Shown here: one piece after another, positions 24,087 to 41,311 of the stretch | Numbering within the stretch: position 1 is the stretch's first letter | Layout of the letters: the number at the start of each line of letters is the position of its first letter | Source of the DNA: Clostridia bacterium | GTDB taxonomy: Bacteria > Bacillota > Clostridia > Oscillospirales > CAG-272 | Direction: 5' to 3' | DNA: 64,000 nt | Assembly: GCA_017456985.1 (NCBI GenBank) | Contig: JAFTIH010000037.1 | Coordinates: forward strand, 5,558 to 69,557 | Notes under the pieces: model-generated | What the model was told of the DNA's origin: nothing | Databases searched by the model: none | Seen by the model: only the letters and a program-made list of their open reading frames with translations | Position numbers and translations under genes: made by a program

Positions 24087-25289
24087 ATGAAAATTCTGGT
24101 CATCAACGCCGGAAGCTCCTCTCTCAAATACCAGCTGATCGATATGGACACCGACACGGTTCTTGCCAAGGGTGTCTGCGAGCGCATCGGTATCGAGGGT
24201 AGCTCCGTCACGCACAAGCGTCCCGCACAAGAAAAGTATTTTGAGCAGACGCCCATCGCCAACCACGACGAGGCTCTCGCTCTGGTTATGAAGCTTCTGA
24301 CGAGCGCCGAGGTGGGTGTCGTTTCCTCGGTTGACGAGATCGACGCCATCGGTCACCGTGCCGCACACGGCGGTACTGAGCTTTCGGGTGCCGTCGTCGT
24401 CACGGACGAGGTCTTGAAGTATCTCGAAAGCATCGTCGAGCTCAACCCCCTGCACGGTCCTCCCGCTATCGCGGGTATGAAGGCGTCTATGGCGGCAATG
24501 CCCGGCAAGACCAACGTCGTCCTTCCCGATACGGCGTACTACTCCACGATGCCCCCCGCATCCTACGTTTACCCCATCCCCTACGAGTATTACGAAAAGC
24601 ATCAGGTGCGTCGCTACGGCTTCCACGGTACCTCCCACCGCTACGTGTGCGGTAAGGTCGCCGAGGTGTTAGGCAAGCCCCTGTCCGAGCTTAAGATCAT
24701 CACCTGCCACATCGGCTCGGGCTCCTCGATCACCGCAACCAAGTACGGCAAGGCGGTAGATACTTCGATGGGCTTCACGCCCCAGGACGGCGTTCCTATG
24801 GGTACCCGCTCGGGCGCGATCGACCCCACCATCCCCACCTACTTAATGAAGGCGTTCGGCTACACCCCCGAAGAGGTTGAGGATATCCTCAACAACAAGT
24901 CGGGACTCCTCGGCGTTTCGGGACTTTCGAGCGACTGCCTCAAGGTGCTCATCGCCGCATCCGAGGGCAACGAGCGTTGCGCACTCGCGATGGACATCCT
25001 TTACCACAACATCAAGAAGATCATCGGCTCCTACATCGCTGAAATGAACGGCGTGGATGCCATCGTCTTCACCGCAGGCATCGGTGAGAACGATAAGATC
25101 GTTCGCGAGAACATTTGCCGCGATATGCAGTGGCTGGGCATCGAGATGGACAAGGCTGCCAACGATGGCTCCGCGCGCGGCGAATTTGCCGACATTACCG
25201 CAGAGGGCTCCCGTGTGAAGCTTCTCGTCATCCCCACGGATGAAGAGCTGATGATCGCGAAGGAAACCGCCCGCCTTGCGGCAAACTAA
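24087..25289 (+). CDS. ackA: Acetate/propionate kinase (AckA/PduW family)
   Basis: MKILVINAGSSSLKYQL, HRYGFHGTSH and GIGEN motifs. GGAGGAAGG RBS. Only 51 nt upstream of the BMC aldolase gene. Confidence 0.93.
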   Translation: MKILVINAGSSSLKYQLIDMDTDTVLAKGVCERIGIEGSSVTHKRPAQEKYFEQTPIANHDEALALVMKLLTSAEVGVVSSVDEIDAIGHRAAHGGTELSGAVVVTDEVLKYLESIVELNPLHGPPAIAGMKASMAAMPGKTNVVLPDTAYYSTMPPASYVYPIPYEYYEKHQVRRYGFHGTSHRYVCGKVAEVLGKPLSELKIITCHIGSGSSITATKYGKAVDTSMGFTPQDGVPMGTRSGAIDPTIPTYLMKAFGYTPEEVEDILNNKSGLLGVSGLSSDCLKVLIAASEGNERCALAMDILYHNIKKIIGSYIAEMNGVDAIVFTAGIGENDKIVRENICRDMQWLGIEMDKAANDGSARGEFADITAEGSRVKLLVIPTDEELMIAKETARLAAN

Positions 25290-25340
25290 TTGTGTTCGCA
25301 AAAAAATAAATATAAAAAATCTTGAAAGGAAACACAAATC

Positions 25341-26150
25341 ATGGCTATGAATGCTTTCGAAATCAAGAAGCAAATCTGCGAAGTCGGCCACAAGCTCTAC
25401 GCGAAGGGCTTCGTTGCCGCAAACGACGGTAACATCTCCGTCAAGGTCAACGACAATGAGTTCTACTGCACTCCTACGGGCGTATCCAAGGGCGACCTGA
25501 CCCCCGATATGATCATCCGTATCGATGCAACGGGCAAGAAGATCGAGGGTAAGCTCAATCCTTCCTCCGAGATCAAGATGCACCTTCGTGTGTATCAGGA
25601 GCGCCCCGACGTGCGCGCCGTTGTTCACGCACATCCCCCCGTTGCCACCGCTTTCACCGTTGCAGGTGTTGAGCTTGACCAGTACATCCTTCCCGAGGCT
25701 GTCCTGACCATCGGTAACGTTCCTACCTGTGAGTACGGTACCCCCTCCACCATGGAGATCCCCGACTCTCTGATGCCCTTCATCCAGAAGCACGACGCAT
25801 TCCTGCTCAAGAACCACGGTGCTCTTACCGTTGGTAACACTCTGCAGAAGGCACAGTTCACGATGGAAGAGGTTGAGTTCAACGCAGTGATCTGCAAGCA
25901 CGCACGCGAGCTTGGCGGCGTTGAGGAGATCCCCTGCGAGCAGCTTGAGAAGCTTATGGAGCTCCGCAAGAAGATGCAGATCCCCGGCCGTCACCCCGGC
26001 TGCAAGACCTGTAAGAACCTCGGCACCGAAAACTGCCGTTGCAAGCACAACTGCGACAAGGGCGACAAGAAGGCAGCTGCTCCCGCAGCAGGCGACGCCG
26101 CTCTCGTAGCAGAGATCACCAAGAAAGTTATGGAGGCGCTTGGAAGATAA
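25341..26150 (+). CDS. Class II aldolase (L-fuculose/rhamnulose-1-phosphate aldolase-like) with Cys-rich linker and C-terminal encapsulation-peptide-like helix
   Basis: Class II aldolase/adducin motifs (GNISVKV, VVHAHPP, LLKNHGALTVG). C-terminal extension CKTCKNLGTENCRCKHNC...AALVAEITKKVMEALGR. Confidence 0.85.
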   Translation: MAMNAFEIKKQICEVGHKLYAKGFVAANDGNISVKVNDNEFYCTPTGVSKGDLTPDMIIRIDATGKKIEGKLNPSSEIKMHLRVYQERPDVRAVVHAHPPVATAFTVAGVELDQYILPEAVLTIGNVPTCEYGTPSTMEIPDSLMPFIQKHDAFLLKNHGALTVGNTLQKAQFTMEEVEFNAVICKHARELGGVEEIPCEQLEKLMELRKKMQIPGRHPGCKTCKNLGTENCRCKHNCDKGDKKAAAPAAGDAALVAEITKKVMEALGR

Positions 26151-26180
26151 TTCCGCGTTTTCGGAAAGGATAACAGCACT

Positions 26181-27641
26181 ATGGCCATCAATTGGACCGA
26201 AGCACAGATCGAACAGATCGTCAAGGCTGTGATCGAAAACGTCAGCGCAGCACCCAAGGCAAGCGCCACCGTCGCTTGGAGCTCCACCGCGTATGCGGGC
26301 AGAGAGCTTATCGGCGTGTATGAAAAGATGGAGGACGCCATTGCCGCGGCAGAGAACGGCTACCGTGCCGTTCGCGCGATGTCCGTGGCAAAGCGTGAAA
26401 AGCTCATCACCCGTATTCGTGAAATGATCCGCGAGGAGGCGCCCATTATGGCGGCGCTCGGCGTTGCGGAAACGAAGATGGGCAGAGTGGATCACAAAAC
26501 CGCCAAGCATCTTCTCGTCGCCGACAAGACCCCCGGTACGGAGGACATCACGCCCACCGTCCGCACGGGTGACGACGGATTAACGCTGACCGAGATGGCA
26601 CCCTTCGGTGTCGTCGGTGCGATCACGCCCTCCACCAACCCCAGCGAAACCGTGCTGTGCAACAGTATGGGTATGATCGCCGCAGGAAACGGCGTCGTGT
26701 TCAACCCCCACCCGGGTGCGATCGCGACCTCCAACTACGCCGTTGACCTCGTCAACCGCGCGTGCGCGGCTGAGGGCGGTCCCCGCGTTCTCGTTTCCTC
26801 CGTGGTAAAGCCTACGCTGGATACGGCGAAGATCATGTACGCACATCCTTCCATCCGCCTGCTCGTTTGCACGGGCGGCCCCGGCGTTGTGAAGGCAGTG
26901 CTTTCCTCGGGTAAAAAAGCAATCGGCGCAGGCGCAGGCAATCCCCCCGTTATCGTGGACGATACGGCGGACATCGCCAAGGCGGCAAAGGACATCATCG
27001 ACGGATGCACCTTTGACAACAACCTCCCCTGCATTGCCGAGAAGGAAGTTTTCGCTTTCGATAACATTGCCGACGAGCTGATCGCCGGAATGCTCAAAAA
27101 CGGTGCCTACAAGATCACGGCGGCGCAGGCAGACGAGCTTGCCAAGATCGTGCTTGTCGATACCAAAAATCCCAAGACGGGTATCATCAAGAAGACCGTA
27201 TCGCGCGATTGCGTGGGCAGAGATGCCGCCGTGCTTCTTGAAAAGATCGGCGTAAAGGTCGGTCCCGAGATCCGTTGTATCATCTGCGAGACCGATTTCG
27301 ATCACCTGTTCGTACAGGAAGAGCTGATGATGCCTATCCTCCCCATCGTTCGTGTACATAACATTGACGAAGCGATCGAGCTCGCCGTCAAAGCGGAGCA
27401 CGGCAACCGCCACACCGCGCATATGCACTCGAAGAACATCGATCACCTGTCCCGCTTTGCCAAGGCGGTGGAAACGACCATCTTCGTCAAGAACGCGCCC
27501 TCTTATGCGGGCATCGGCTTTGGCGGTGAGGGTCACGCCACCTTCACCATCGCAGGTCCTACGGGTGAGGGAATTACCTCGGCAAAGAGCTTTACGCGTC
27601 TGCGCCGTTGCGTAATGGCGGATAACTTCCGTATTATTTAA
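26181..27641 (+). CDS. pduP: CoA-acylating aldehyde dehydrogenase (PduP/EutE-like) with N-terminal encapsulation peptide
   Basis: ALDH fold with catalytic Cys region (NNLPCIAEKE) and GAGAGNPP. N-terminus INWTEAQIEQIVKAVIENV is an amphipathic helix. Confidence 0.88.
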   Translation: MAINWTEAQIEQIVKAVIENVSAAPKASATVAWSSTAYAGRELIGVYEKMEDAIAAAENGYRAVRAMSVAKREKLITRIREMIREEAPIMAALGVAETKMGRVDHKTAKHLLVADKTPGTEDITPTVRTGDDGLTLTEMAPFGVVGAITPSTNPSETVLCNSMGMIAAGNGVVFNPHPGAIATSNYAVDLVNRACAAEGGPRVLVSSVVKPTLDTAKIMYAHPSIRLLVCTGGPGVVKAVLSSGKKAIGAGAGNPPVIVDDTADIAKAAKDIIDGCTFDNNLPCIAEKEVFAFDNIADELIAGMLKNGAYKITAAQADELAKIVLVDTKNPKTGIIKKTVSRDCVGRDAAVLLEKIGVKVGPEIRCIICETDFDHLFVQEELMMPILPIVRVHNIDEAIELAVKAEHGNRHTAHMHSKNIDHLSRFAKAVETTIFVKNAPSYAGIGFGGEGHATFTIAGPTGEGITSAKSFTRLRRCVMADNFRII

Positions 27642-27679
27642 GGTTTTTAAAATATTATGATAGAAAGGAAGTCTATGAC

Positions 27680-28876
27680 ATGGAATTGAATTCCGCACAG
27701 GTGGAAGGCATCGTACGCAAGATCCTTGGCGAGATGACCGGCAGCGCACCCGCAAAGAGCGCAGGCGGTATGGCTAAGGTAGCAATGCTGACTTCCCCCA
27801 AAAACATTGAGATCAAGGAATTCCCCATTCCCACCGTGCTTGAGGATGACGACATCCTCGTAAAGGTCGAGGGCTGCGGCGTTTGCGGTACCGACGTACA
27901 CGAGTGGAAGGGCGACCCCTTCGGACTCATCCCTGTCGTGCTGGGTCACGAGGGTACGGGCGAGATCATCGGTCTTGGTAAGAACGTAAAGTTCGATACC
28001 GCGGGCAACCCCATCAAGATTGGCGACAAGATCGTCACCTCGGTTATCTCCTGCGGCGAGTGCCAGATCTGCCGTAATCATCCTGCAAATACCAACCTCT
28101 GCGACAAGCAGGGCGTGTTCGGTCTGATCGGACACAACGATGCAAACCCCCTCAACGGTTGGTTTGCTACCCACCTTCTTATCCGCGCCAAGGGCGCAAC
28201 CTACTTCGTGGTCAATGAGCTTGACCTCAAGGAGAGAATGATCCTCGAGCTCGCTTGCGTTTGCGTACACGCTCTGAAGCGTGCGAACGGTACGGGTTTG
28301 ATGAACTTCAACTCCAAGGTCCTCATCCAGGGTCTCGGCCCCGTTGGTTTGGTTATGATCAGCGTCCTTCGTGCCGCAGGTATCAACCACATCATCGCTG
28401 TTGACGGCGCTCCGATGCGTCTTGAAATGGCGAAGAAGCTGGGCGCAAAGACCGTCATCAACTTCCGCGAGGCACAGACGCTTGATGAGCGCGTTGCCAT
28501 CGTCAAGGGTGTGACCGCGGGCATGGGTGCTGACTTTGCATTCCAGTGCACGGGTGCTCCCCCCGCAGCAGCTGACATTTACTCCTACATCCGTCGCGGC
28601 GGCGGACTTTGCGAGATGGGCTTCTTCGTCAACAACGGCGAATACAGCGTGAACCCCCACTTCGCAATGTGCAACAAGGAGATCAACATCGTTGGCTCTT
28701 GGGACTACAGTGCAGACGATTATCCCACCACCGTTGCGTTCCTGAAGCAGGCGCGTGAGATGAACATTCCGATCAAGGACCTCATCACGCACACCTATCC
28801 TCTTGACAAGCTCAACGAGGCGATGGAGACCAACCTGGCGCAGAAGGGCATTAAGATCTGCTACATCAACGAGTAA
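27680..28876 (+). CDS. Zn-dependent (MDR family) alcohol dehydrogenase with N-terminal encapsulation peptide
   Basis: GCGVCGTDVHEWKG, structural Zn Cys cluster (CGECQICRNH) and GLGPVGL Rossmann motif. N-terminus MELNSAQVEGIVRKILGEM is an amphipathic helix. Confidence 0.85.
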   Translation: MELNSAQVEGIVRKILGEMTGSAPAKSAGGMAKVAMLTSPKNIEIKEFPIPTVLEDDDILVKVEGCGVCGTDVHEWKGDPFGLIPVVLGHEGTGEIIGLGKNVKFDTAGNPIKIGDKIVTSVISCGECQICRNHPANTNLCDKQGVFGLIGHNDANPLNGWFATHLLIRAKGATYFVVNELDLKERMILELACVCVHALKRANGTGLMNFNSKVLIQGLGPVGLVMISVLRAAGINHIIAVDGAPMRLEMAKKLGAKTVINFREAQTLDERVAIVKGVTAGMGADFAFQCTGAPPAAADIYSYIRRGGGLCEMGFFVNNGEYSVNPHFAMCNKEINIVGSWDYSADDYPTTVAFLKQAREMNIPIKDLITHTYPLDKLNEAMETNLAQKGIKICYINE

Positions 28877-28900
28877 TCTCGGAAAGTAAGGTTTCTTGCT

Positions 28901-29218
28901 ATGGCACTTGGAATGGTTGAGGTTTACGGCTTTGTTACCTCTATCGTCGTGGCAGATAAAATGGCGAAGGCGGCTGATGTCGAAATCGTTGCCATTGACA
29001 AAAACAAGCCGGCAAACGCCGACAGCGCGGAGGTTCCGCTGGTGATGGTGGTCAAATGCGAGGGAACGGTAGCGGCTGTAGAATCTGCTGTCGCGGCAGG
29101 CATTGCCGAGGCAGAGGAGCGCGGTCTTTACATCACCTCGAAGATCATCTCGCGCCAGTCGGACGACGTCGAATGGTTCGCACGTCTTTCCGCTCTCGGC
29201 AAGGATAAGCTTCGATAA
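28901..29218 (+). CDS. BMC-H shell protein, divergent (Pfam00936-type)
   Basis: MALGMVEVYGFVTSIVVADKMAKAADVEIV...VKCEGTVAAVESAVAAG is a BMC domain with an inserted loop (KNKPANADSAEVP). Confidence 0.8.
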   Translation: MALGMVEVYGFVTSIVVADKMAKAADVEIVAIDKNKPANADSAEVPLVMVVKCEGTVAAVESAVAAGIAEAEERGLYITSKIISRQSDDVEWFARLSALGKDKLR

Positions 29219-29257
29219 TTTTAAAAAATAAAAAATACTTAAAGGAGAACACAAAAA

Positions 29258-29530
29258 ATGATGGAAGCTCTTGGTATGGTTGAAACCCGCGGTCTTGTTG
29301 CCGCAATTGAGGCTGCTGATGCAATGGTAAAGGCAGCAAACGTAGTACTCGTTGGTTCCGAGAAGATCGGTTCCGGCCTCGTATCCGTAATGGTTCGTGG
29401 CGACGTTGGCGCCGTTAAGGCTGCTGTAGAGGCTGGCTCTGCTGCCGCTTCGGGCCTTGGCGAGGTTATCGCAACGCACGTCATCCCCAGACCCCACGCA
29501 GACGTGGAGAAGCTCCTTCCCAAGAAGTAA
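29258..29530 (+). CDS. pduA: BMC-H shell protein (PduA/EutM-like), paralog 1
   Basis: [28 protein letters not shown]...[23 protein letters not shown]...IPRPH is canonical hexamer shell protein sequence. Confidence 0.93.
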
Positions 29531-29542
29531 TCAGATACGCTT

Positions 29543-29821
29543 ATGATGAACGAAGCAATCGCACTTCTTGAAGTGCAGGCAAACGTTGCCGCGATTGCTG
29601 GGCTGGATGCTATGGTAAAGGCGGCGAACGTTCGTCTGATTCACGTGGAAAGACGCTTGGGCGGAAGACTGGTCACGGTCGTGGTCGAAGGCACCGTCTC
29701 CGACGTTACGGCAGCTGCAGAAGCAGGTGCTGAAGCGGCGAGAGAGGTTGGCAAGGTCAAGCTGTGCGAGGTCATCGCGCGCCCGCACCCCGAAGTGATG
29801 AAATTTCTCAAACAGGGGTAA
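29543..29821 (+). CDS. BMC-H shell protein, divergent
   Basis: [29 protein letters not shown]...VTVVVEGTVSDVTAAAEAG...IARPHPEV is a BMC domain. Confidence 0.8.
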   Translation: MMNEAIALLEVQANVAAIAGLDAMVKAANVRLIHVERRLGGRLVTVVVEGTVSDVTAAAEAGAEAAREVGKVKLCEVIARPHPEVMKFLKQG

Positions 29822-29873
29822 AAAAATTCGATTTTATTTGCAAAAATAAAAAATCTTTATGGAGGATTTCAAA

Positions 29874-30143
29874 ATGGAAGCACTTGGTATGGTCGAAACC
29901 CGCGGCTTGGTTGCCGCAATCGAGGCTGCTGATGCAATGGTAAAGGCAGCAAACGTGATCCTGATCGGCTCCGAGAAGATCGGTTCCGGACTCGTATCCG
30001 TTATGGTTCGTGGCGACGTTGGTGCCGTTAAGGCTGCTGTTGAGGCTGGCTCTGCTGCCGCTTCGGGCCTTGGCGAGGTTATCGCAACGCACGTCATCCC
30101 CAGACCCCACGCAGACGTGGAGAAGCTTCTGCCCAAGATCTAA
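29874..30143 (+). CDS. pduA: BMC-H shell protein (PduA/EutM-like), paralog 2
   Basis: Near-identical to 29258..29530. Start taken at MEALGM (29874) with a TGGAGGA RBS. Confidence 0.93.
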
Positions 30144-30355
30144 TCTTGCGGGAGCGATCCTTCGCCGTCCCTTTTTGGGACGGCGAAGGGTAACATCGAA
30201 AGCAAGGCGCGCCGTTACCTGGCAAGCGCCAAACCCGCTTTTGCGGTCGATGGTCCCCCCTGCAAAACGCTTGCAGAGCGGAGCATTGCCCGTCCAAAAG
30301 ACGGAACCAATAAAAGAAATTATGCGACGAGCGTCGCAGGAAAGAGCGGTAACGT

Positions 30356-31015
30356 ATGGAACTGACTGCAAAACAAATGGAAGAACTCGTAAGACAGATC
30401 ACGGCAGAGATCGTTGCGGGAGGCAGTGCTGCGGCACAGTCGGATGAGATCCCCGTGGGCGTCTCCAACCGTCATATTCACTTAACGCGTGAGCACGTGG
30501 AGATTTTGTTTGGAAAGGGCTATGAGTTACAAAAGCTCAAGGACCTCTCCCAGCCCGGTCAGTACGCTTGTAAGGAGACCCTCACCATCGTTGGTCCCTC
30601 GCTCCGTCCCATCGAGCGCGTCCGTGTTCTGGGTCCCGAGCGCCGCGCCTCGCAGGTCGAGATCTCCAAGACCGACTCCTACGCTCTCAAGGTCAAGGCG
30701 CCCGTCCGTGAGTCGGGCAAGGTCGCAGGCTCCGCAGGTGTCACCATCATCGGTCCTTGCGGCGTGGTCACGCTTGAAGAGGGCTGTATCATCGCCAACC
30801 GCCATATTCATATGTCGCTTGCAGACGGAGAGCACTTCGGTGTTTCGGACGGCGACTACGTTACCGTTGACGCCGTGGGCGAGCGCCGCACGCGCTTCTA
30901 CGACGTGCAGGTGCGCGTGAGCAAGGATTTCTGCCTCGAAATGCACCTTGATACGGACGATGCCAACGCCGTCGGACTCACGGGCAAGAGCACCGTCAAG
31001 ATCGTAAAAGAGTAA
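30356..31015 (+). CDS. pduL: Phosphate propanoyltransferase PduL with N-terminal encapsulation peptide
   Basis: IPVGVSNRHIHLTREHVEILFG and a second repeat IIANRHIHMS (PduL duplicated motif). N-terminus MELTAKQMEELVRQITAEIV. Confidence 0.9.
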   Translation: MELTAKQMEELVRQITAEIVAGGSAAAQSDEIPVGVSNRHIHLTREHVEILFGKGYELQKLKDLSQPGQYACKETLTIVGPSLRPIERVRVLGPERRASQVEISKTDSYALKVKAPVRESGKVAGSAGVTIIGPCGVVTLEEGCIIANRHIHMSLADGEHFGVSDGDYVTVDAVGERRTRFYDVQVRVSKDFCLEMHLDTDDANAVGLTGKSTVKIVKE

Positions 31016-31040
31016 AAAAGAGCAGGGAAGGATATAAGCT

Positions 31041-31295: not shown

Positions 31296-31311
31296 GAAAG
31301 GATCGTTCACC

Positions 31312-32634: not shown

Positions 32635-32657
32635 GCTTGAAAGGAAAGTAAAGTATT

Positions 32658-33203: not shown

Positions 33204-33258
33204 TCTAAAAAAACAACGTCCCACCCAAAGGGATAGGGATTGAAAGGAGAATAAAGCT

Positions 33259-35793
33259 ATGGTGCATCAGCCCACCCGCTTTACCACGGAAAAGAGTGCG
33301 CGCATCCCTATGCTCATTTCCGATATTTTCGGCAATTTTCCTCAGATCGAAGCCGACCGCGCGATCCTTCTGACCGAGAGCTACAAGGCAACGGAGGCGC
33401 TTCCTACGATCCGCCGCCGCAGTGCGGCATTCGCCCACATCCTTGCAGGTCTTCCCGTCGTCATTCGCCGCGGCGAGCTGATCGTGGGTGTCAATACCAA
33501 GAACCCCCGCAGCTGCCCCACCTTCCCCGAGTATTCCTGGGAATGGCTTGAAGCAGAATTCGACACCGTTGAAACGCGTGAGGCAGACCCCTTCCACATC
33601 TCCGAACAGACCAAGGAAGCACTTCGCGCCATCCATCCCTATTGGAAGGGTAAGACCTCGAGCGAGCTCGCGGCATCCTTGATGTCCCCCGAGGCGTACG
33701 ACGTCTTTATGAACCACGGTATCTTCACCGTCGGTAACTACTTCTATAACGGCGTGGGTCATATCACCGTGGATTACGGTAAGGTGCTCCGCATCGGCTA
33801 CGAGGGCATCAAGAAGGAAGCGCTTGCGGCGCTTGCCTCCATCAAAACGGGTGACGGCGACTATATGCAGCGCACCCACTTCATCAAGGCGGTCATCGAG
33901 TGCTGTGACGCCGCAAGAGATTTTGCCGCGCGCTACGCAGACGAGGCAGAGCGTCTTGCCGCCGCCGAGAGCGATCGCGTTCGCCGCGAGGAGCTTCTTG
34001 AGATCGCCAAGATCTGCCGCCACGTGCCGTATCACGGCGCACGCTCCTTCCACGAGGCTTGCCAGTCCTTCTGGTTCGTTCAGCTTCTCATCCAGACGGA
34101 GGGCAGCGGTCACTCCATCTCCCCCGGTCGCTTCGACCAGTATATGTATCCCTTCTACAAGGCTGACCTTGACGCGGGTAAGATCACCCACGAGCAGGCA
34201 CAGGAGCTGATCGACTGCATTTGGGTCAAGCTCAACAGCTTGAGCAAGGTGCGTGACGCCGAGTCCGCCGCAGGCTTTGCAGGATACAGTATGTTCCAGA
34301 ACCTCATCGTCGGTGGTCAGGATAAAAATGGTATGGACGCTACCAACGACCTGTCCTATATGTGTCTTGAAGCATCCATCCACGTTCGTCTGCCTCAGCC
34401 CTCGCTCTCTATCCGCGTATGGAACGGCTCGCCCCAGGAGCTTCTTCTGAAGGCGGCGTACTTAACGCGTCTTGGCGACGGCGTTCCCGCATACTACAAC
34501 GACGAGATCATCATCCCCGCGCTTATGTCCCGTGGACTTTCTCTTGAGGAAGCGCGCGACTATTCCATCATCGGATGCGTTGAGCCGCAGACGCCCCACG
34601 CAACCGACGGCTGGCACGACGCGGCATTCTTCAATATGTGCCGCCCGATGGAGCTCGTATTCTCCAACGGTGTGGACGAGGGTGTGCAGATCGGTCCTCG
34701 CACGGGCGAGCTTCGCGAGCTTGATACCTTTGAAAAGTTTTTTGACGCATACAAGAAGCAGGAAGCGTATTTCATCGAGCTGATGGTCAACGCCGACAAC
34801 GCCGTTGACGTTGCGCACGGTGTCCGTTGCCCCCTCCCCTTCGAGTCCTCGATGGTGGACGGTTGTCTTGCCAGCGGTAAGGCGGTCGAAGAGGGCGGTG
34901 CCCGTCACAACTTTACGGGTCCCCAGGGCTTTGGTATTGCCAATATGACCGACGCACTCCTTGCGATCCGTGAGCTGGTCTATGAAAAGAAGCTCGTTAC
35001 GCTTTGCGAATATAAGGAAGCGATGGCGGCAAACTTCGGTAAGGGCTTTACGGGCAAGGGCGCCGAGAAGATGACCATCAAGGTCGCAAGCGCACTTGCA
35101 AAGGCGGGCGTCGAGATCACGGACGCCGTCATCAAGACCATCCACGAAACCGTAAGCTCGGGCGACTATCTGCCCAAGGAGAAGCGCGCACGCTACGAGG
35201 AGATCTACAAGCTCATCGGCACCGTCAAGAAGTACGGTAACGACGATAAGGAAGCCGACCTCTTTGCGCGTGAGGTCGCTTACACCTATACCAAGGAAGT
35301 AGAGAAGTACACCAACCCCCGCGGCGGTATCTACCACGCAGGTCTGTACCCCGTATCCGCAAACGTGCCGCTCGGCGCGCAGACGGGAGCAACGCCCGAC
35401 GGACGTCTTGCTTACACGCCTATTGCGGACGGTGTCGGTCCCGCATCGGGCAGAGACGTGTGCGGTCCTACGGCGGCGGCAAACTCCGTAGCCAAGCTTG
35501 ACCACGGTATCGCCTCCAACGGTACGCTCTTTAACCAGAAGTTCCACCCCGCCGCTCTTGCAGGCGAGGCAGGACTGCTCAAGTTCGTTTCGCTCATTCG
35601 CGGCTTCTTTGACCAGAAGGGTATGCATATGCAGTTTAACGTGGTCAACCGCGAAACGCTTCTCGATGCGCAAGCGCATCCCGAAAACTACCGCAACCTC
35701 GTGGTGCGCGTCGCAGGCTATAGCGCGCTGTTCACCACCCTCTCCCGCTCGCTGCAGGACGACATCATCGCCCGTACCGAGCAGGGATTCTGA
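33259..35793 (+). CDS. Glycyl radical enzyme, PFL-like family; probable B12-independent diol (1,2-propanediol) dehydratase
   Basis: 844 aa. Catalytic Cys loop IIGCVEPQ and C-terminal glycyl radical motif VVRVAGYSALF. The substrate call is contextual (aldolase + PduP + PduL). Confidence 0.9.
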   Translation: MVHQPTRFTTEKSARIPMLISDIFGNFPQIEADRAILLTESYKATEALPTIRRRSAAFAHILAGLPVVIRRGELIVGVNTKNPRSCPTFPEYSWEWLEAEFDTVETREADPFHISEQTKEALRAIHPYWKGKTSSELAASLMSPEAYDVFMNHGIFTVGNYFYNGVGHITVDYGKVLRIGYEGIKKEALAALASIKTGDGDYMQRTHFIKAVIECCDAARDFAARYADEAERLAAAESDRVRREELLEIAKICRHVPYHGARSFHEACQSFWFVQLLIQTEGSGHSISPGRFDQYMYPFYKADLDAGKITHEQAQELIDCIWVKLNSLSKVRDAESAAGFAGYSMFQNLIVGGQDKNGMDATNDLSYMCLEASIHVRLPQPSLSIRVWNGSPQELLLKAAYLTRLGDGVPAYYNDEIIIPALMSRGLSLEEARDYSIIGCVEPQTPHATDGWHDAAFFNMCRPMELVFSNGVDEGVQIGPRTGELRELDTFEKFFDAYKKQEAYFIELMVNADNAVDVAHGVRCPLPFESSMVDGCLASGKAVEEGGARHNFTGPQGFGIANMTDALLAIRELVYEKKLVTLCEYKEAMAANFGKGFTGKGAEKMTIKVASALAKAGVEITDAVIKTIHETVSSGDYLPKEKRARYEEIYKLIGTVKKYGNDDKEADLFAREVAYTYTKEVEKYTNPRGGIYHAGLYPVSANVPLGAQTGATPDGRLAYTPIADGVGPASGRDVCGPTAAANSVAKLDHGIASNGTLFNQKFHPAALAGEAGLLKFVSLIRGFFDQKGMHMQFNVVNRETLLDAQAHPENYRNLVVRVAGYSALFTTLSRSLQDDIIARTEQGF

Positions 35794-35830
35794 TCCCCGA
35801 TCCTCTAAACATCCACGAAAGGAGACCGTC

Positions 35831-36640
35831 GTGACGGAATATTACGCATCCGACGCCGCAACTCGCGGCAGAATCTTCGATATCCAGCGCTATTCCGTCA
35901 ACGACGGTCCCGGCATTCGTACCATCGTTTTTTTAAAGGGCTGTATGTTCCGTTGCCGCTGGTGCTCCAACCCCGAGGGACAGCTCTTTGAGCCCGTCAC
36001 CTTGAAGGCGATGCACGGCAAGGGTGACAAGATCGCAGGCACGGACGTGACGGCGGGCGAGGTGATGGAAACCGTCCTGCGCGACAGCGTCTATTACGCA
36101 CGCTCGGGCGGCGGACTCACCCTTTCGGGCGGCGAAGCGCTTCTTCAGCCCGACTTTGCACTCGCGCTCTTCCGTCTTGCTCACTTGCACGGCGTGAACA
36201 CCGCTATTGAAACGACGGGCTACGCCTCGCGCGAGGTGCTGGATAGACTCCTGCCGCACATTGATTACGTCTTGATGGATATCAAGCATATGGACCCGAA
36301 AAAGCACGAAGCCTTTATCGGAAAGACCAACGAGCGCGTCCTTGAAAACGCGCCGTATATCGCACAGCACGCGCACCACTATACCGTGCGCGTCCCCGTC
36401 ATCCCCACCTTCAACGACACCGACGCGGAGATCGCCGCCATCGCGCGCTTCGCCGCATCGATGCCCGGTACCAAGGCGATCCACCTGCTTCCGTATCACC
36501 GACTGGGTATGGATAAGTACACTGCTCTCGGCAGAGATTACGGTATGGGAACGGTCCCCCTGATCCCCGATGAGAAAATGCGCCGACTGCTGTTGGTAGC
36601 GCAGGAAAGTAGCGGTTTAGCCTGCCAGATCGGCGGTTGA
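35831..36640 (+). CDS. Glycyl-radical enzyme activating enzyme (radical SAM)
   Basis: GTG start at 35831 with GAAAGGAG RBS. GPGIRTIVFLKGCMFRCRWCSNPE (CxxxCxxC). The tracked ORF start at 35498 lies inside the GRE gene and was rejected. Confidence 0.88.
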   Translation: MTEYYASDAATRGRIFDIQRYSVNDGPGIRTIVFLKGCMFRCRWCSNPEGQLFEPVTLKAMHGKGDKIAGTDVTAGEVMETVLRDSVYYARSGGGLTLSGGEALLQPDFALALFRLAHLHGVNTAIETTGYASREVLDRLLPHIDYVLMDIKHMDPKKHEAFIGKTNERVLENAPYIAQHAHHYTVRVPVIPTFNDTDAEIAAIARFAASMPGTKAIHLLPYHRLGMDKYTALGRDYGMGTVPLIPDEKMRRLLLVAQESSGLACQIGG

Positions 36641-36679
36641 GTATTTGGTGAAAATTGCCCCATACTTCGGTTGCCACTC

Positions 36680-36816
36680 GGGGCAGTACAAAGTACAGCT
36701 CCCTCGTGTCAAGCCTCGTCTGGAACAATTTTCCCTCAAATAGATGGTTTTGGTCCTTTAAGGGGCAGTACAAGGTACAGCGCCCTCGTGTCAAACATCG
36801 TCTGGAACGCTTTTTC
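36680..36816 (+). repeat. Two about 55-nt direct repeats (36680-36734 and 36762-36816), 82 nt period, in the activase-pduU spacer
   Basis: GGGGCAGTACAAAGTACAGCTCCCTCGTGTCAAGCCTCGTCTGGAACAATTTTCC versus GGGGCAGTACAAGGTACAGCGCCCTCGTGTCAAACATCGTCTGGAACGCTTTTTCC. Each starts with a GGGGCAGTAC-nnn-GTACAGCnCCC hairpin. Confidence 0.8.
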
Positions 36817-36878
36817 CATAAGCACTCGGCCCTCAAAATTTTAACTTTGCAAATAACGCACCGTAAGGAGCAAAACAT

Positions 36879-37238
36879 ATGGAACTTAAAGAAAATATGC
36901 GCATTGTCCAAGAGCTGGTCCCCGGTAAACAGATCACGCTCGCGCACATCATCGCAAATCCCGACCCGCTTCTTTATCAGAAGCTCGGTCTTAATCCCAA
37001 GACGGACTATTCCAAGTCTGCGATCGGTATTCTCACCGTTTCCCCTGCGGAAACGGCGGTCATTTGTGCGGACATCTCGATGAAGTCCTCCAACGCCGAG
37101 GTCGGCTTTGTGGACCGCTTCACGGGTACCTTGATCATCACGGGTACGGTTTCTGCCGTGGATGAGGCGTTCAACGCCATTATGACCTACGTACAGGAGA
37201 AGCTCGGCTATACCGTCGTAGAGAAGACGCGCACGTAA
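36879..37238 (+). CDS. pduU: Circularly permuted BMC shell protein PduU/EutS
   Basis: RIVQELVPGKQITLAHIIANP...SAIGILTVSPAETAVICADI is the PduU/EutS signature N-terminus. Confidence 0.88.
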   Translation: MELKENMRIVQELVPGKQITLAHIIANPDPLLYQKLGLNPKTDYSKSAIGILTVSPAETAVICADISMKSSNAEVGFVDRFTGTLIITGTVSAVDEAFNAIMTYVQEKLGYTVVEKTRT

Positions 37239-37239
37239 G

Positions 37240-37710
37240 ATGAAAAAGCTGATTCTGATGGGGCGTGTCGCCGCAGGAAAGACCACGCTATTGCAGGCGC
37301 TTTCGGGCGAGGACATCTCCTATTATAAAACGCAATCCATCCATTATCTCGACTACATTATTGACACCCCGGGCGAATACACCGAGCGGAGAGAAACCGG
37401 CGGTGCTCTCGCCCTTTATGCATATGAGGCAGACGTTGTGGGACTTGTGATCTCGGCAAACGAGCCTTATTCTATTTATAGCCCCTGCATCACCTGTATG
37501 GTCAACCGCGACGTCATCGGTATCATTACGGGTGTCGATAAGCCGGACGCCAACCCCGAGCAGGTAGAAAATTGGCTCCGCCTTGCAGGATGCTCCCACG
37601 TGTTCCGCGTATCCTCTTATACGGGAGAGGGCATTGAGGAGCTTCTCGATTACTTAAAGGACGACTCGGACCGCGAACAAGAACAAACGGAAGGGAAGAA
37701 AACAGTATGA
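37240..37710 (+). CDS. pduV: PduV/EutP family small GTPase
   Basis: MKKLILMGRVAAGKTTLLQAL...IDTPGEY. Starts 1 nt after the pduU stop. Confidence 0.88.
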   Translation: MKKLILMGRVAAGKTTLLQALSGEDISYYKTQSIHYLDYIIDTPGEYTERRETGGALALYAYEADVVGLVISANEPYSIYSPCITCMVNRDVIGIITGVDKPDANPEQVENWLRLAGCSHVFRVSSYTGEGIEELLDYLKDDSDREQEQTEGKKTV

Positions 37711-38498
37711 GCTTAACCAAAGTGATCTGCTTCGCCAATAACAAGGGAGGAAGCGGAAAATCCACCACCTGCTCCAACGTCGGTACCGCACTTGCACAGA
37801 TGGGAAAGCGCGTGCTTCTCGTGGATGGCGATATGCAGTTAAACCTCTCGCTTTCCTTCTTCGACGAGGACACCGTGCTTTCGATGGCGGCAAGCGAAAA
37901 AAATCTTTATTACGCCATCAAAAACGAGCAGGACCTTGCCGACTATATCATCCCCACTCCCTACGAAAACCTTGACCTCATCCCCTCCTCGACCCTGATG
38001 AGCGGTATTGAGGTGGAGCTTTTCACCAAGTGGCAAAGAGAGTTTATTCTTAAGAAGTGCTTAGAACGCGTGCGCGCCTCGGGCAAATACGATTTTATTC
38101 TGCTCGACTCGCCCCCGACGCTCGGCGGCTGGGTGATGAACATTATGTGCGCCTCCGATTATCTCATCGTTCCCGTTGAGGCAAGCCCCTGGGGACTGTT
38201 CGGACTTGCCAATATGTTCGAGTTTGCAGACAAGGTGCGCTCGCTCGCGCCGAATCTCACCGTGCTCGGCATCGCCGTCACCAAGGCGGACGAGCGCAAG
38301 AACTACTTCCGTCAGACGCTCGAAACGCTGGGCGAGATCGACGGCGTCCATCTGTTTGAGTCCATCATCCGTGTCGATAGCACGGTGGAATGGTCGCAGG
38401 ATAACTCCAAGCCCGTTTTGGTGTATAAGCCTTCGGCAAGAAGTGCCAAGGAATACATAAATCTTACAAAGGAGATTTTAAATTATGTCAGTAGGTAA
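37707..38498 (+). CDS. ParA/MinD-family P-loop ATPase (candidate McdA-like BMC positioning ATPase)
   Basis: Deviant Walker A with signature Lys (NNKGGSGKST), A' motif LLVDGDMQ, Walker B FILLDSPP. 263 aa, no N-terminal HTH. ATGA overlap with pduV. The ParA family call is solid; the BMC-positioning role is inference. Confidence 0.9.
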   Translation: MSLTKVICFANNKGGSGKSTTCSNVGTALAQMGKRVLLVDGDMQLNLSLSFFDEDTVLSMAASEKNLYYAIKNEQDLADYIIPTPYENLDLIPSSTLMSGIEVELFTKWQREFILKKCLERVRASGKYDFILLDSPPTLGGWVMNIMCASDYLIVPVEASPWGLFGLANMFEFADKVRSLAPNLTVLGIAVTKADERKNYFRQTLETLGEIDGVHLFESIIRVDSTVEWSQDNSKPVLVYKPSARSAKEYINLTKEILNYVSR

Positions 38499-38784
38499 AG
38501 CAAGCATTAAGCGCGCTGTCGGCGATAGCGCAAAGGTGGAAGAAAAGGTTGCCGTAGAAAAGGCAGAGGTAGCAAAGGCTCCCGCAGCCAAGAAGGCACC
38601 CGCAAAAAAAGCCCCCGCGAAAAAGCCCGCCGCTCCTAAGGCAGCCGCACCCAAAGCAGAGGCGCCCGCAAAGCCCGCGCCTGCAAAGAAGCCCGCCGCT
38701 CCCAAGCCCGCATCCGCCCCTAAGGCGACCGCCGCAAACGATGCCGTTGCCGTTGGTGACGCGATGCCCTACTATTTGTTATGA
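38485..38784 (+). CDS. Small Lys/Ala/Pro-rich, probably disordered protein (candidate McdB-like adaptor); hypothetical
   Basis: 99 aa counted from the track: 33 A, 19 K, 14 P, net charge about +12. N-terminal basic patch GKASIKR, (P)AKK repeats, C-terminus AMPYYLL. AAGGAG RBS. Overlaps the parA-like stop by 14 nt, and the next gene overlaps its stop by 4 nt. Confidence 0.6.
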   Translation: MSVGKASIKRAVGDSAKVEEKVAVEKAEVAKAPAAKKAPAKKAPAKKPAAPKAAAPKAEAPAKPAPAKKPAAPKPASAPKATAANDAVAVGDAMPYYLL

Positions 38785-40346
38785 TGAAAAAAATACTGTC
38801 CCTATTTCTGCTTTTATCCCTTCTTTTGACGACAGCGTGCTCGTCCTCCCCTTATTTTGATTTCGTCGGCGAGGATCTCTCCGCGTATTACGAGCTTTCT
38901 CTCGATGAGATCACGGGCGGGACCTACGAGATCACGATGTCGGACGAGGTCACGATGGCGGACGTTGAGAAGGAGCTGCGCAGACTGCGTCTGTATCACG
39001 CCACCTACGGTCCCAACGATATTGACACCTACGCGATGATTCCCGAATACGGCGACGACGTGCGTATCTTTTACGAGATCAAGCTCACTGAGGACGGGGA
39101 GTGCCTTCTCTCCAACCTCTACGCCAAGGAGCCGCAATCCGTTATCATCGGACAGTGGGAGTTCCCCGAAGCCATCGAGAAAACCTACTCTCCCGTACTT
39201 GACAACCCCGCTGTTTCCGAGTCGCTTCTTTCGGCGATGCCCGCAGAGCGTATCTTTACGGGCACGGTTGCTGAGGGGGACGTCGTTTATGTAAACTATA
39301 AGCGCTATGCCACCGCTGCCCCCTCCAAGATCCTCTCCTCGCAAACGGCGGCGCGTATCGACTCGGGCGTTCCCGCCGACACGTATGCCGACACCTACGG
39401 TGCGGAATTTGCCCGTGCCGTGGTCGGAAAAACGGTAGGGGATACCTATCGCTTCACCGCGATGGAAACGGTGGACGGTACGCTCCAAGAGGTCACCTAC
39501 GTTTGCAAGGTGTCCTATATTGCAAAGGAAACCTATCGCACCGTTACGGTTGCAGTCCCTGCGGACGCTTACGACGAGGAATACAGCGAGGTGATGCAGA
39601 GCCTCAACGGCAAGACCGTTCTCGTTCGCTACGTCATCCATCGTTACGTTGACTACGCGACCCCCGAGCTTGACGTCAATTTCTTTACCGAGAAGCTGGG
39701 CTTTGAGACCGAGGAAACGGATCCCGCACGCGTCAAGGAAGAGGTGTGCGCCAAGCTTTTGGAGCAGATGGAGCAAACGCGCCTGATCGAAGAGATCTAT
39801 CCCCAGGTCTGGGCGCATATCTTCGATAAACTCTTCGCGCGCAAGGATCGCCTTAAAAAGCTTCCCGAAGCAACGGTGGAGCTTGAATACGACCTTTTGA
39901 TGCTCGAAGGACGCCTTGCGTACGAAAGTGCGCAAAAGAAGGCGACTGAAAACGGCACGGCGTTCTCTTATGCCAATATCGATGCCTTCGCTCCCGAGTA
40001 TTTCGGGTACGACGCGGCGCGCTATTCCACGATGAAGGCATTCTGTGAGGCAGAAGCCGAATACCAGGTCACCGTCAAGGTGATGACCTTCGCGATCGCG
40101 CAGGCGGCGGACATCCTTCTCACCCCCGAGGAGTATGACAAGCTGATCGAAGAGTATCTCGCTTATCTGATCGAATATTATAAATCCTCGTATCAAACGG
40201 ATCAGATCACCCCCGTGATGATCTACCAGAATTACGGCGCAGGCACGCGCGAGGATTTTGAAGCCTTCGTTCTCTATCGTGACACCGAAGGACAGATCCT
40301 AGAATATCTTTACAAAAACAACACCTGGAAGCCCAAGGCTTCTTAA
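38781..40346 (+). CDS. Lipoprotein, function unknown (weak trigger-factor/PPIase-chaperone-like character)
   Basis: Signal peptide plus lipobox MMKKILSLFLLLSLLLTTAC. Helical C-terminal region resembles chaperone arm domains. No confident family assignment by eye. Confidence 0.6.
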   Translation: MMKKILSLFLLLSLLLTTACSSSPYFDFVGEDLSAYYELSLDEITGGTYEITMSDEVTMADVEKELRRLRLYHATYGPNDIDTYAMIPEYGDDVRIFYEIKLTEDGECLLSNLYAKEPQSVIIGQWEFPEAIEKTYSPVLDNPAVSESLLSAMPAERIFTGTVAEGDVVYVNYKRYATAAPSKILSSQTAARIDSGVPADTYADTYGAEFARAVVGKTVGDTYRFTAMETVDGTLQEVTYVCKVSYIAKETYRTVTVAVPADAYDEEYSEVMQSLNGKTVLVRYVIHRYVDYATPELDVNFFTEKLGFETEETDPARVKEEVCAKLLEQMEQTRLIEEIYPQVWAHIFDKLFARKDRLKKLPEATVELEYDLLMLEGRLAYESAQKKATENGTAFSYANIDAFAPEYFGYDAARYSTMKAFCEAEAEYQVTVKVMTFAIAQAADILLTPEEYDKLIEEYLAYLIEYYKSSYQTDQITPVMIYQNYGAGTREDFEAFVLYRDTEGQILEYLYKNNTWKPKAS

Positions 40347-40366
40347 TTTCGGAAAGGACCGCTCGT

Positions 40367-41275
40367 ATGAAAAAACTGATCGCCCTCGCCTTCCTTTTGG
40401 GCATTCTTCTTTCCTGCCTTTTCGGATGCGCGAAGGATCCGAACCCCACGCTTCGCTATATGGTGGACGGGGAAGTCTTTTTTGAGGACGTGATCGAGGA
40501 GGACTCCGAGCGCTTCGACGAGGTGCGAGAGCTTCCCGAAAAAACGGGCTATATTTTCGGCGGTTGGTATTACGACGACGGCAAGTGGGAAAAGCCGCTT
40601 GAGCTCACCGTACTCAACGGCAGGGTGGAAAACAAGACTTACACCGTATATGCCAAATGGGAGGTCGTAGAGCTTTCCTTCGATAAGACCGCCTTGACCT
40701 ATACGGTCACGGGTCTTCTCTCGGGCGCGGGTGCGAGCGTCGTTATTCCCGAAAAGGTGAACGGCTATCCCATCGTCGCCATCGCGGACGGCGCCTTCAA
40801 GGACGTCGTTACGTTAAAGGAGATCACCATTCCGAATACCGTCAAAACGATCGGCGAGCACGCCTTTGAGGGCTGCACGGCGCTTGAGGGCGTCATCATC
40901 CCTCATAGCGTCACCGCCATCGGCAGATATGCTTTTACGGGTTGCTCGTCGCTGGCAAGCGTTCGTTTGAGCGCATCCATCAACACGGTCAGCGCCCACC
41001 TCTTCAAGGACTGTACGGCGCTCACCGAGGTGGTCGTATTCGACGGCGTCACCGCAGTCGGACACGCCTCCTTTGCGGGTTGCTCGTCGCTCTCGTCGCT
41101 GACGCTTCCCAAAAGCGTCAAAACGATCGGCACCGCGATCCTCTCGGGAAGCGCACTTACCGAGCTCACCTTCGGCGGCTCGCTCGACACCTGGTCGCGG
41201 GTGGAGAAGACCGATTTTGCAAACGCCTCTTCGCTCACGGTCGTCCGTTGCACCAACGGCACTGTGGCTCCCTAA
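40367..41275 (+). CDS. Lipoprotein with InlB-type B-repeat and BspA-type leucine-rich repeats
   Basis: Lipobox LLSCLFGC, GYIFGGWYYDDGKWEKP repeat, and repeated IP.SV..IG..AF.GC..L units. Confidence 0.75.
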   Translation: MKKLIALAFLLGILLSCLFGCAKDPNPTLRYMVDGEVFFEDVIEEDSERFDEVRELPEKTGYIFGGWYYDDGKWEKPLELTVLNGRVENKTYTVYAKWEVVELSFDKTALTYTVTGLLSGAGASVVIPEKVNGYPIVAIADGAFKDVVTLKEITIPNTVKTIGEHAFEGCTALEGVIIPHSVTAIGRYAFTGCSSLASVRLSASINTVSAHLFKDCTALTEVVVFDGVTAVGHASFAGCSSLSSLTLPKSVKTIGTAILSGSALTELTFGGSLDTWSRVEKTDFANASSLTVVRCTNGTVAP

Positions 41276-41281
41276 ATAACG

Positions 41282-41311
41282 AAAAGACGCGCAATTTTGC
41301 GCGTCTTTTTT
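41282..41311 (+). terminator. Rho-independent terminator ending the long BMC gene string
   Basis: AAAAGACGCGCA-attt-TGCGCGTCTTTTTT. Confidence 0.8.

Follow-up and report, generated by a model that had tools for sequence, protein, structure and literature searches.

The 64,000-nucleotide stretch of contig JAFTIH010000037.1 analysed here (the window) comes from ruminant-gut metagenome assemblies and belongs to an uncultured, Oscillospiraceae-like gut Clostridia bacterium. It carries a string of genes for a bacterial microcompartment (BMC) with a glycyl radical enzyme (GRE). An open reading frame map and family scans reveal twenty genes in an unbroken same-strand string (24087–41275, + strand), in the order ackA, class II aldolase, PduP, Zn-dependent alcohol dehydrogenase (Zn-ADH), four BMC-H, PduL, BMC-P, PduS, PduT, GRE, GRE activase, PduU/EutS, PduV, ParA, a 99-residue protein, lipoprotein 1 and lipoprotein 2. 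All the genes that a first-pass annotation of the window had named are present on this strand with strong family matches. Most intergenic gaps measure 1–55 nt or are overlaps, as that annotation held, and its description fails at two places only: 212 nt separate the last BMC-H gene from pduL and 238 nt separate the activase gene from pduU. Framed by an upstream terminator and promoter and by a closing terminator, the string is probably co-transcribed.

Enzymes and shell proteins of the operon

The first gene, ackA (24087–25289; ATG start, GGAGGA ribosome-binding site), encodes an acetate/propionate kinase for the AckA/PduW role, with 460 bits to PF00871 and 466 bits to TIGR00016. It is followed by genes for a class II aldolase of the fuculose/rhamnulose-1-phosphate type (25341–26150; PF00596, 163 bits over residues 11–182 of 269), a PduP-type CoA-acylating propionaldehyde dehydrogenase (26181–27641; NF011927, 669 bits; Aldedh domain from residue 48) and a Zn-dependent medium-chain alcohol dehydrogenase of the kind that serves as lactaldehyde reductase in GRM5 loci (27680–28876; PF08240, 64 bits, and PF00107, 84 bits; domain from residue 56). 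The PduL phosphotransacylase (30356–31015; PF06130, 256 bits from residue 33) and a PduS-type flavin/Fe–S oxidoreductase (31312–32634; PF01512, PF13375 and PF13534) are encoded further downstream. Four of these enzymes bear an amphipathic terminal helix with an Ala/Pro/Gly linker, which takes the form of an N-terminal encapsulation peptide in PduP (MAINWTEAQIEQIVKAVIENV), Zn-ADH (MELNSAQVEGIVRKILGEM) and PduL (MELTAKQMEELVRQITAEIV) and of an encapsulation-peptide-like helix in the C-terminal tail of the aldolase (AAAPAAGDAALVAEITKKVMEALGR). AckA opens straight on its conserved core (MKILVINAGSSS) and is probably cytosolic, because it has no encapsulation or targeting peptide. This distribution fits a compartment in which the four helix-bearing enzymes and the GRE would lie inside the shell and the kinase outside.

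The GRE (33259–35793; PF02901, 788 bits; PF01228, 123 bits) aligns over its full length (residues 11–843) with the diol dehydratase of Roseburia inulinivorans (5i2a) at 1170.7 bits. The other solved matches are glycerol dehydratase (964 bits), CutC (about 493 bits) and HypD (490 bits). Three stretches are identical to 5i2a, namely IIGCVEPQ (the thiyl loop, with Cys440 and Glu442), GVGH and YPVSANV, the last of which is replaced by YPSSINV in glycerol dehydratase. The roles assigned here to pocket residues are those they reportedly play. An insert at about residues 594–645 (about 52 residues) aligns with 5i2a and is absent from glycerol dehydratase, whose alignment breaks at 593–646. Such an internal insertion is the proposed encapsulation peptide of GRM3, GRM4 and GRM5 dehydratases (Ferlez 2019). 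The enzyme has no N-terminal extension and starts 10 residues ahead of the 5i2a alignment. The lower scores and the YPVSANV pocket stretch rule out an identity as CutC, HypD or glycerol dehydratase, and these matches place the GRE with the 1,2-propanediol dehydratases, as first assigned. Its radical SAM activase (35831–36640; GTG start, aaggag ribosome-binding site; TIGR02494, 285 bits) is a short form of 269 residues, with Radical_SAM and Fer4_12 domains only, no PF00037-type match and a single CxxxCxxC motif.

Interspersed with the enzyme genes are those of the shell: four BMC-H proteins (28901–29218, 29258–29530, 29543–29821 and 29859–30143; PF00936, 66–101 bits each), a BMC-P pentamer protein (EutN/PduN; 31041–31295; PF03319, 102 bits), a PduT-type tandem BMC-T (32658–33203; two PF00936 domains, 134 bits; ACPGK cysteine near residue 38) and a PduU/EutS-type protein (36879–37238; PF00936, 45 bits), whose orthologues stand directly after the activase in all related loci. 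A PduV/EutP small GTPase (37240–37710; PF10662, 166 bits) follows.

Every sequence-testable mark of GRM5, the fuculose/rhamnulose-phosphate type of glycyl-radical microcompartment as delimited by Ferlez (2019), is found in this gene set. The GRE and its activase (PF04055) stand beside six PF00936 proteins and one PF03319 protein, and the GRE is of the propanediol-dehydratase type with an internal insertion (about 60 residues in the published criterion). A hallmark of GRM5 is an activase without the ferredoxin-like insert of about 70 residues found in other GRM activases (Ferlez 2019), and the window's activase has no such insert. The locus also encodes both a PF00596 class II aldolase and a lactaldehyde reductase (PF00107/PF08240); PduS and PduT are present and GrpU is absent. 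The only permuted-type shell protein is the PduU orthologue, which has a single Cys and no recognisable Fe–S motif. For this comparison we used what we take to be the Fe–S motif of GrpU. The B12-dependent propanediol-utilization (PDU) class was rejected: neither PduCDE nor PduGH nor any cobalamin-enzyme family occurs among the 20 genes, and the dehydratase is a GRE. We put the probability that the locus is a GRM5 operon, with the pathway and the tail module described below, at roughly 0.8, in agreement with the class assigned by the first-pass annotation.

The pathway that had been proposed is correct by family assignments. L-rhamnulose-1-phosphate or L-fuculose-1-phosphate, made by enzymes encoded elsewhere, would be cleaved by the encapsulated aldolase to dihydroxyacetone phosphate and lactaldehyde, which the encapsulated Zn-ADH would reduce to 1,2-propanediol at the expense of NADH. 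The GRE, activated by the radical SAM enzyme, would convert propanediol to propionaldehyde, and PduP would oxidize the latter to propionyl-CoA with regeneration of NADH. PduL would then yield propionyl-phosphate and AckA, probably in the cytosol, propionate and ATP. The NADH cycle would thereby be balanced within the compartment, Zn-ADH consuming what PduP restores. The shell would be composed of the four BMC-H proteins, PduT, PduU and the one BMC-P protein, with PduS and PduT probably carrying electrons.

The closest known counterparts are the GRM5 loci of Clostridium (Lachnoclostridium) phytofermentans (Cphy_1174–1187) and R. inulinivorans, which share the enzyme and shell set, the GRE type and the short activase. 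The order aldolase, PduP, Zn-ADH, BMC-H, PduL, PduN, PduS and PduT equals that of Cphy_1177–1186, as had been noticed on first reading. The Cphy_1177–1186 operon is induced 15–87 fold on fucose and rhamnose, and polyhedral bodies have been shown in that organism, whose sugar isomerase and kinase genes are unlinked too. The window differs from these model loci in that the GRE–activase–PduU block stands at the end and not at the start, in the addition of ackA at the head and of PduV, ParA and the adaptor at the tail, and in the lack of the DeoR regulator encoded beside the model loci. The pdu operon of Salmonella enterica shares PduP, PduL and PduW-type kinase chemistry and homologues of PduS, PduT, PduU, PduV and PduN, and also includes its kinase gene. 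Where the window encodes a GRE and its activase, however, Salmonella relies on B12-dependent PduCDE with a reactivase and cobalamin enzymes; its operon has no aldolase, lactaldehyde reductase or ParA pair, and pduW stands towards its end and not at its head. The compartment of Planctomycetes and Verrucomicrobia (PVM) likewise encapsulates a class II aldolase with fuculose or rhamnulose phosphate as substrate and processes the aldehyde further, but has no GRE or activase, and lactaldehyde is dismutated there instead of being routed through propanediol to propionaldehyde.

A layout shared by related gut Clostridia

A GRE search with one genome per species returned 596 relatives, and the 80 closest loci were mapped by tblastn with all window proteins. 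The gene order of the window (type A) recurs in 61 of the 80, which belong to Oscillospiraceae, Christensenellaceae, Candidatus Scatosoma and other uncultured Clostridia. The GRE comes first, as in the model organisms (type B), in 12 loci, which have neither ackA nor ParA. GRE and activase without nearby shell genes make up four clear loci and probably six; the last three of the 80 are not classifiable, and two of these (L060 and L077) show GRE and activase only. The window locus is thus typical of a layout common to at least 61 species. Within type A, ackA lies directly before the aldolase gene, on the same strand and at a distance of 28–68 nt, in 27 of the 29 loci with enough upstream DNA, and ParA follows pduV in 50 of 52. 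The kinase at the head and the ParA at the tail, both of which had been thought unusual, are therefore the norm and not oddities.

The conserved position of ackA bears on a different explanation, namely that this is the single housekeeping acetate kinase of the organism, with a transcript of its own, lying beside the locus by chance. The protein matches the general ackA subfamily model and not the propionate-kinase equivalog, the sole promoter-like site seen stands before ackA, and a second ackA was not found in the window. Chance proximity is nevertheless very unlikely, as the same-strand adjacency of 28–68 nt is kept in 27 of 29 species, the 51-nt spacer between ackA and the aldolase gene has neither a hairpin nor a promoter-like site, and in 12 relatives an RpiR gene precedes ackA and the aldolase gene follows it, so that ackA is internal to the string. 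The enzyme may double as a housekeeping kinase.

Those 12 relatives carry an RpiR/MurR-family regulator gene 23–192 nt upstream of ackA on the same strand; a 13th has it directly before the aldolase gene. The same upstream place is taken by the L-rhamnose isomerase gene rhaA in four relatives and by the rhamnulokinase gene rhaB in two, and a divergent DeoR gene lies upstream in three. With a regulator or rha gene upstream, ackA is not the first gene of the string in these relatives, and the rhaAB linkage points to rhamnose as a main input. By tblastn, the relatives' RpiR, RhaA, RhaB and DeoR proteins have no hits in the 64-kb window, and the rest of the window holds no rha or fuc genes. The missing cis regulator is real, the one true departure, and is common to the window and its closest relative, L007. 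The first-pass annotation had judged the lack of both regulator and sugar genes unusual; this stands for the regulator, since relatives carry RpiR or DeoR, but not for the sugar genes, which are unlinked in C. phytofermentans as well. In RpiR loci (L032, L048, L057, L058, L061 and L023) a TTGACA-17-TAAAAT promoter is followed by two or three TGAAA-N5-6-TTTCA palindromes, a candidate operator of the RpiR regulator. None of these palindromes lies near the ackA promoter of the window; three copies are present elsewhere in the window (0.4 expected), none of them near the locus. In the lineage without a cis regulator, the operon must be controlled from another part of the genome.

Several observations weigh against the reading of the locus as a GRM5 operon with the pathway given above. 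The organism is uncultured and its locus is known here from sequence alone; no rha or fuc genes and no regulator were found in the 64-kb window; and the aldolase falls under every NCBIfam equivalog cut-off, its best match being the 3-oxo-tetronate-4-phosphate decarboxylase model (134 bits), so that its exact substrate is not fixed. The aldolase scores, together with the absence of rhaA, rhaB, fucI, fucK, a permease and a regulator from the window, would suit a compartment that mainly takes free gut 1,2-propanediol, in the manner of GRM3 and PDU, or an aldolase that uses another sugar phosphate, deoxyhexoses then not being the physiological input. This is unlikely, given that the aldolase and Zn-ADH, both with encapsulation-peptide-like termini, are kept in 61 of 61 type A loci, that rhaA or rhaB adjoins the locus in six relatives, and that fucose and rhamnose induce the C. 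phytofermentans orthologue of the operon even though its sugar genes are unlinked.

The tail of the string ends with two genes for proteins with lipobox signal peptides. Lipoprotein 1 (38781–40346) is of unknown family, with no Pfam, NCBIfam or PDB sequence match save a sub-threshold trigger-factor hit; lipoprotein 2 (40367–41275) has BspA-type leucine-rich repeats (PF13306). The former recurs only in L007 and L008 and the latter only in L007, and clustering of the open reading frames downstream of the adaptor in about 50 loci gave no cluster present in more than four to five of them. The part of the first-pass description that held the tail to be unusual is thus upheld for the lipoproteins, confined to the closest one or two relatives. 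They look like lineage-specific co-transcribed passengers. A role in the system, for example in surface uptake or binding of deoxy-sugar glycans, might be read from the translational coupling of the two genes to the adaptor (ATGA overlap), the lack of a terminator before 41282 and the recurrence of lipoprotein 1 after the adaptor in L007 and L008. It is improbable in view of the absence of both genes from the other loci of about 50, whose downstream genes are mutually unrelated, of the lack of any family or structure match for lipoprotein 1, and of the occurrence of BspA-type leucine-rich-repeat lipoproteins elsewhere in several related loci, where they have no link with the operon and lie on one strand or the other (weak lipoprotein 2 hits in L019, L024, L050 and L052).

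The locus is accordingly a correctly identified, complete GRM5 locus that is ordinary for its clade. Its departures from many relatives are only the missing cis regulator and rhaAB and the two extra lipoprotein genes. For the chemistry of deoxy-sugar fermentation it holds no novelty; what it does reveal is one fixed 18-gene layout, from ackA to the adaptor, that is common among uncultured Clostridia of the ruminant and human gut making propionate from rhamnose and fucose.

The ParA–adaptor pair

The ParA module that the first-pass annotation had placed in the tail is present, although its nature as a conserved McdAB-like pair of ParA and adaptor had not been recognised. The parA gene (37707–38498; PF13614, 179 bits), whose start overlaps the pduV stop, encodes an ATPase of the ParA/MinD family (McdA-like) with a deviant Walker A motif, KGGSGKST, at residues 13–20. 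Its nearest solved structures are those of ParA/Soj (118 bits to 8ray, versus 53 bits to solved McdA), and it is 61–87% identical among relatives, the same degree as the core enzymes. The next gene (38485–38784) overlaps parA by 14 nt and encodes a basic, McdB-like adaptor of 99 residues (33% Ala, 19% Lys, 14% Pro; pI 10) that runs from MSVGKASIKR to GDAMPYYLL. The ends and starts of pduV, parA and the adaptor gene overlap, and in every locus with ParA a small gene begins about 14 nt before the parA stop.

The adaptors of this family vary in length from 71 to 176 residues (median pI 9.7) and have unalignable middles rich in Lys, Ala, Pro, Glu and Thr, which are predicted, from composition only, to be disordered. 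Their ends are nearly invariant across 56 sequences. The N-terminus reads M-[PSA]-[IV]-G-K-x-[SA]-[IL]-x-R and the C-terminus G-x-[ED]-[LM]-P-x-[YHWF]-L-L-COOH, with near-invariance at G4, K5, R10, P-5, the aromatic residue or His at -3, and LL-COOH. Position -3 is Y in 39, H in nine, W in five and F in three of the 56, and so is not always aromatic; position -7 is E in 26 and D in 18.

The pair shows the sequence features described for McdAB-like systems (MacCready 2021; Basalla 2024): a ParA-type ATPase with a deviant Walker A motif within a BMC operon, and a small downstream partner of biased composition whose N-terminus is charged and whose last four to five residues include an aromatic one, with acidic residues nearby. 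Putative McdA/McdB-like pairs have been described beside GRM and PDU loci, the McdB-like ends carrying Tyr or Phe in the last four to five residues with acidic neighbours; the same papers call the metabolosome McdB-like proteins uncharacterised and metabolosome positioning unknown (MacCready 2021; Basalla 2024). The supplements of the McdB papers contain no published McdB-like sequences for comparison. As in the carboxysomal McdA/McdB systems of Synechococcus elongatus and Halothiobacillus neapolitanus, a ParA-family ATPase is followed here by a small, basic, largely disordered protein, and the window shares with McdAB and with the McdAB-like pairs at GRM and PDU loci the charged N-terminus, the aromatic residue near the C-terminus with acidic neighbours, and the encoding in a BMC operon. 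It differs from the carboxysomal systems in that the adaptor has no detectable sequence similarity to McdB, in the fixed LPx[YWHF]LL-COOH end where McdB has an invariant Trp, and in a ParA that is closer to Soj-type ParA than to McdA.

Together these features fit a pair that is probably of the McdAB-like kind and would space the organelles in the cell, although for the positioning role itself the odds are roughly even. In this scheme the pduV–parA–adaptor set would most likely serve as a module for the compartment surface and for positioning. ATP-bound ParA would attach to the nucleoid and be stimulated by the N-terminal MxxGKxx[IL]xR of the adaptor, whose C-terminal LPxYLL motif would keep hold of the compartment in the way that McdB holds carboxysomes.

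The pair also resembles ParABS partition systems, with which it shares the KGGxxK[ST] Walker A motif, a partner encoded directly downstream and an N-terminal Lys/Arg peptide like the ParA-stimulating peptide of ParB, and rare members of the adaptor family keep a ParB_N domain. It differs in its place inside a metabolic operon and in its partner. Membership of the ParABS class itself was rejected on the grounds that the 99-residue partner has no ParB_N, helix-turn-helix (HTH) or dimerisation domain. Repeats resembling parS did not come to light either, although no search aimed at them was made.

A number of findings tell against a role confined to microcompartments. The ParA–adaptor family is not restricted to BMC loci: among six ParA homologues (72–75% identity) whose neighbourhoods were inspected, a single one stands behind a GRE and its activase, with no shell genes, and five have unrelated neighbours, for example LysR, GNAT, Fe-ADH or MerR genes. 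A metagenome scan seeded with an unlinked ParA gave 80 Blautia-type loci, none of which (0/80) has BMC genes within up to 10 kb, and the adaptors of these loci keep both terminal motifs. Given such unlinked pairs with the same termini, the C-terminal motif could bind a target other than a shell. Ten rare adaptors (10 clusters in a search of 5.8 billion proteins; P0121–P0130) carry a ParB_N domain and a GYRR box between the same termini, which suggests that they descend from a ParB-like partner or have recombined with one; no HTH is listed for these ten. The Lys/Ala/Pro repeats of the adaptor, finally, resemble the DNA-binding tails of histone-H1-like proteins, the only Pfam hit being a weak, sub-threshold one to HC2. 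Two of the ten ParB_N adaptors were viewed in their neighbourhoods (L092, 6776–7306; L093, 6779–7240), and neither lies in a BMC locus.

These findings would be expected if ParA and its small partner formed a self-contained ParA/mini-ParB-type module for a non-BMC cargo, such as DNA or another structure, that became fixed at the operon end in one lineage. This is a possibility of some weight, though doubtful. It draws on the closely similar ParAs with the same adaptor termini beside unrelated genes, the empty surroundings of the Blautia-type loci, the ParB_N adaptors and the histone-like middle, as well as on a neighbour-joining ParA tree in which, with biased sampling, the unlinked members nest within the BMC-linked ones. 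It is harder to reconcile with the linkage to pduV, held in 50 of 52 species-level loci while all that lies downstream varies, with a third context in which the pair is kept beside a GRE and activase, and with an adaptor devoid of HTH and other DNA-specific domains. GRM5 or PDU1, moreover, is found in named species whose pairs are unlinked. The carriers of unlinked pairs are Blautia, Robinsoniella and Faecalicatena, the commonest unlinked ParA being assigned to Blautia by UniRef, and one carrier named outright, Blautia sp. CAG:257, has PDU1. Unlinked pairs are also attributed, through accession prefixes that we presume to be theirs, to Blautia obeum (GRM5 and PDU1) and Blautia sp. KLE 1732 (GRM5). 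The ownership of BMCs by such carriers gives weak support, since BMCs are common in that group. In beta-cyanobacteria, the McdAB genes are reportedly often unlinked from carboxysome operons.

A four-gene block in L001–L003 (6684–11093) comprises a propanediol-dehydratase-type GRE, activase, ParA and an adaptor ending in LPIWLL. It has no shell genes within 10 kb and adjoins oxaloacetate decarboxylase genes. The block may be a satellite of a split BMC locus.

The broader proposal is that the pair is a genuine positioning system of catabolic microcompartments, serving GRM5 and PDU compartments across gut Clostridia whether linked to them or not. The adaptors would then be a single ParB-derived family with an N-terminal peptide that fires ParA, a C-terminal hook that grips the shell, and a replaceable middle, made of disordered Lys/Ala/Pro repeats or, rarely, of a ParB_N domain. 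We hold this tentatively, at slightly less than even odds. If true, it would provide the first general sequence-defined handle on the spacing and inheritance of metabolosomes. ParA-like pairs beside GRM loci were already known; new are the precise definition of the terminal motifs and the partly BMC-unlinked distribution. The positioning of catabolic microcompartments is an open question on which the literature holds only putative McdB-like proteins, and the near-invariant adaptor termini, together with the unlinked pair in culturable Blautia, offer concrete targets for mutagenesis and binding studies.

Boundaries, spacers and flanking genes

The promoter and the strong terminator on which the first-pass annotation relied to delimit the locus are both found in the sequence. 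The candidate sigma-70-type promoter, TTGCTT-17-TATAAT (23969–23997, + strand; -10 element at 23992–23997), lies below the threshold of a consensus scan, as its -35 element fits only three of six positions; L007 has TTGCAT-17-TATAAT in the equivalent position. Ahead of it, an intrinsic terminator (23872–23900, + strand; 11-bp stem with 6 G-C pairs, then a T run) ends the upstream metallophosphoesterase gene, and a bidirectional intrinsic terminator (41282–41309; 12-bp stem between an A run and a T run) closes the locus. These two hairpins are the strongest in the terminator scan, in which the total count of terminator-like sites equals the shuffle expectation.

The 83-nt leader of ackA (24004–24086) contains a GC-rich hairpin and a GTTTTT run (CGCCCGTTTTT, directly before the ribosome-binding site). 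It is not conserved in L007 and has no Rfam match; these features make the leader a candidate transcription attenuator. Rfam scans of the whole window at the gathering threshold, and of the locus at E ≤ 1, gave no riboswitch or leader RNA, the sole match being a chance snoRNA (E 0.99).

The 212-nt spacer before pduL (30144–30355, + strand) is structured, with a 13-bp hairpin right after the last BMC-H gene and a minimum free energy of -96 kcal/mol. A spacer of 78–463 nt stands at this place in nearly all type A loci, its position kept and its sequence not. The best hairpins reach -23 to -40 kcal/mol in 49 of 50 spacers (-15 in the exception, L048), and many are bordered by A and T runs (GGAAAA...TTTTTC). 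This suggests an internal attenuator or an RNA stabiliser that might favour the upstream enzyme and shell genes and so set shell-to-enzyme ratios. The activase–pduU spacer, 238 nt here versus 34 nt in L007, holds two 56-nt direct repeats on the + strand (36680–36735 and 36762–36817) that are 88% identical and 82 nt apart, and of which no further copy occurs in the window or in any related locus that was fetched. Among the shell genes, the second and fourth BMC-H (29258–29530 and 29859–30143) encode proteins with 97.7% identity. The two copies of relatives likewise stay about 90–97% identical to BMC-H 2 and 4 of the window, and the likeness suggests gene conversion or strong constraint.

The flanks had been given as der–obg and topB. 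These genes lie in the region but do not adjoin the locus: the metallophosphoesterase gene (22521–23828) stands between obg and the locus, and two minus-strand genes without assigned function (41352–42332) precede topB. The rest of the 64-kb window is of housekeeping character, with relA, uvrBA, rpsB, tsf, groEL, a sigma factor and others. At 16650–18386, a Wzz-like chain-length protein is encoded with a distant ParA/CpsD-like P-loop protein, 29% identical to the ParA of the locus; the two seem to be a polysaccharide tyrosine-kinase pair with no bearing on the operon. An AraC-family regulator gene (minus strand) divergent from a Gfo/Idh/MocA oxidoreductase gene (54458–56719), and BNR-repeat (sialidase-like) proteins encoded at 51059–52183 and 57151–58311, may form a unit of their own, related to glycans, at a distance of 13 kb from the locus.

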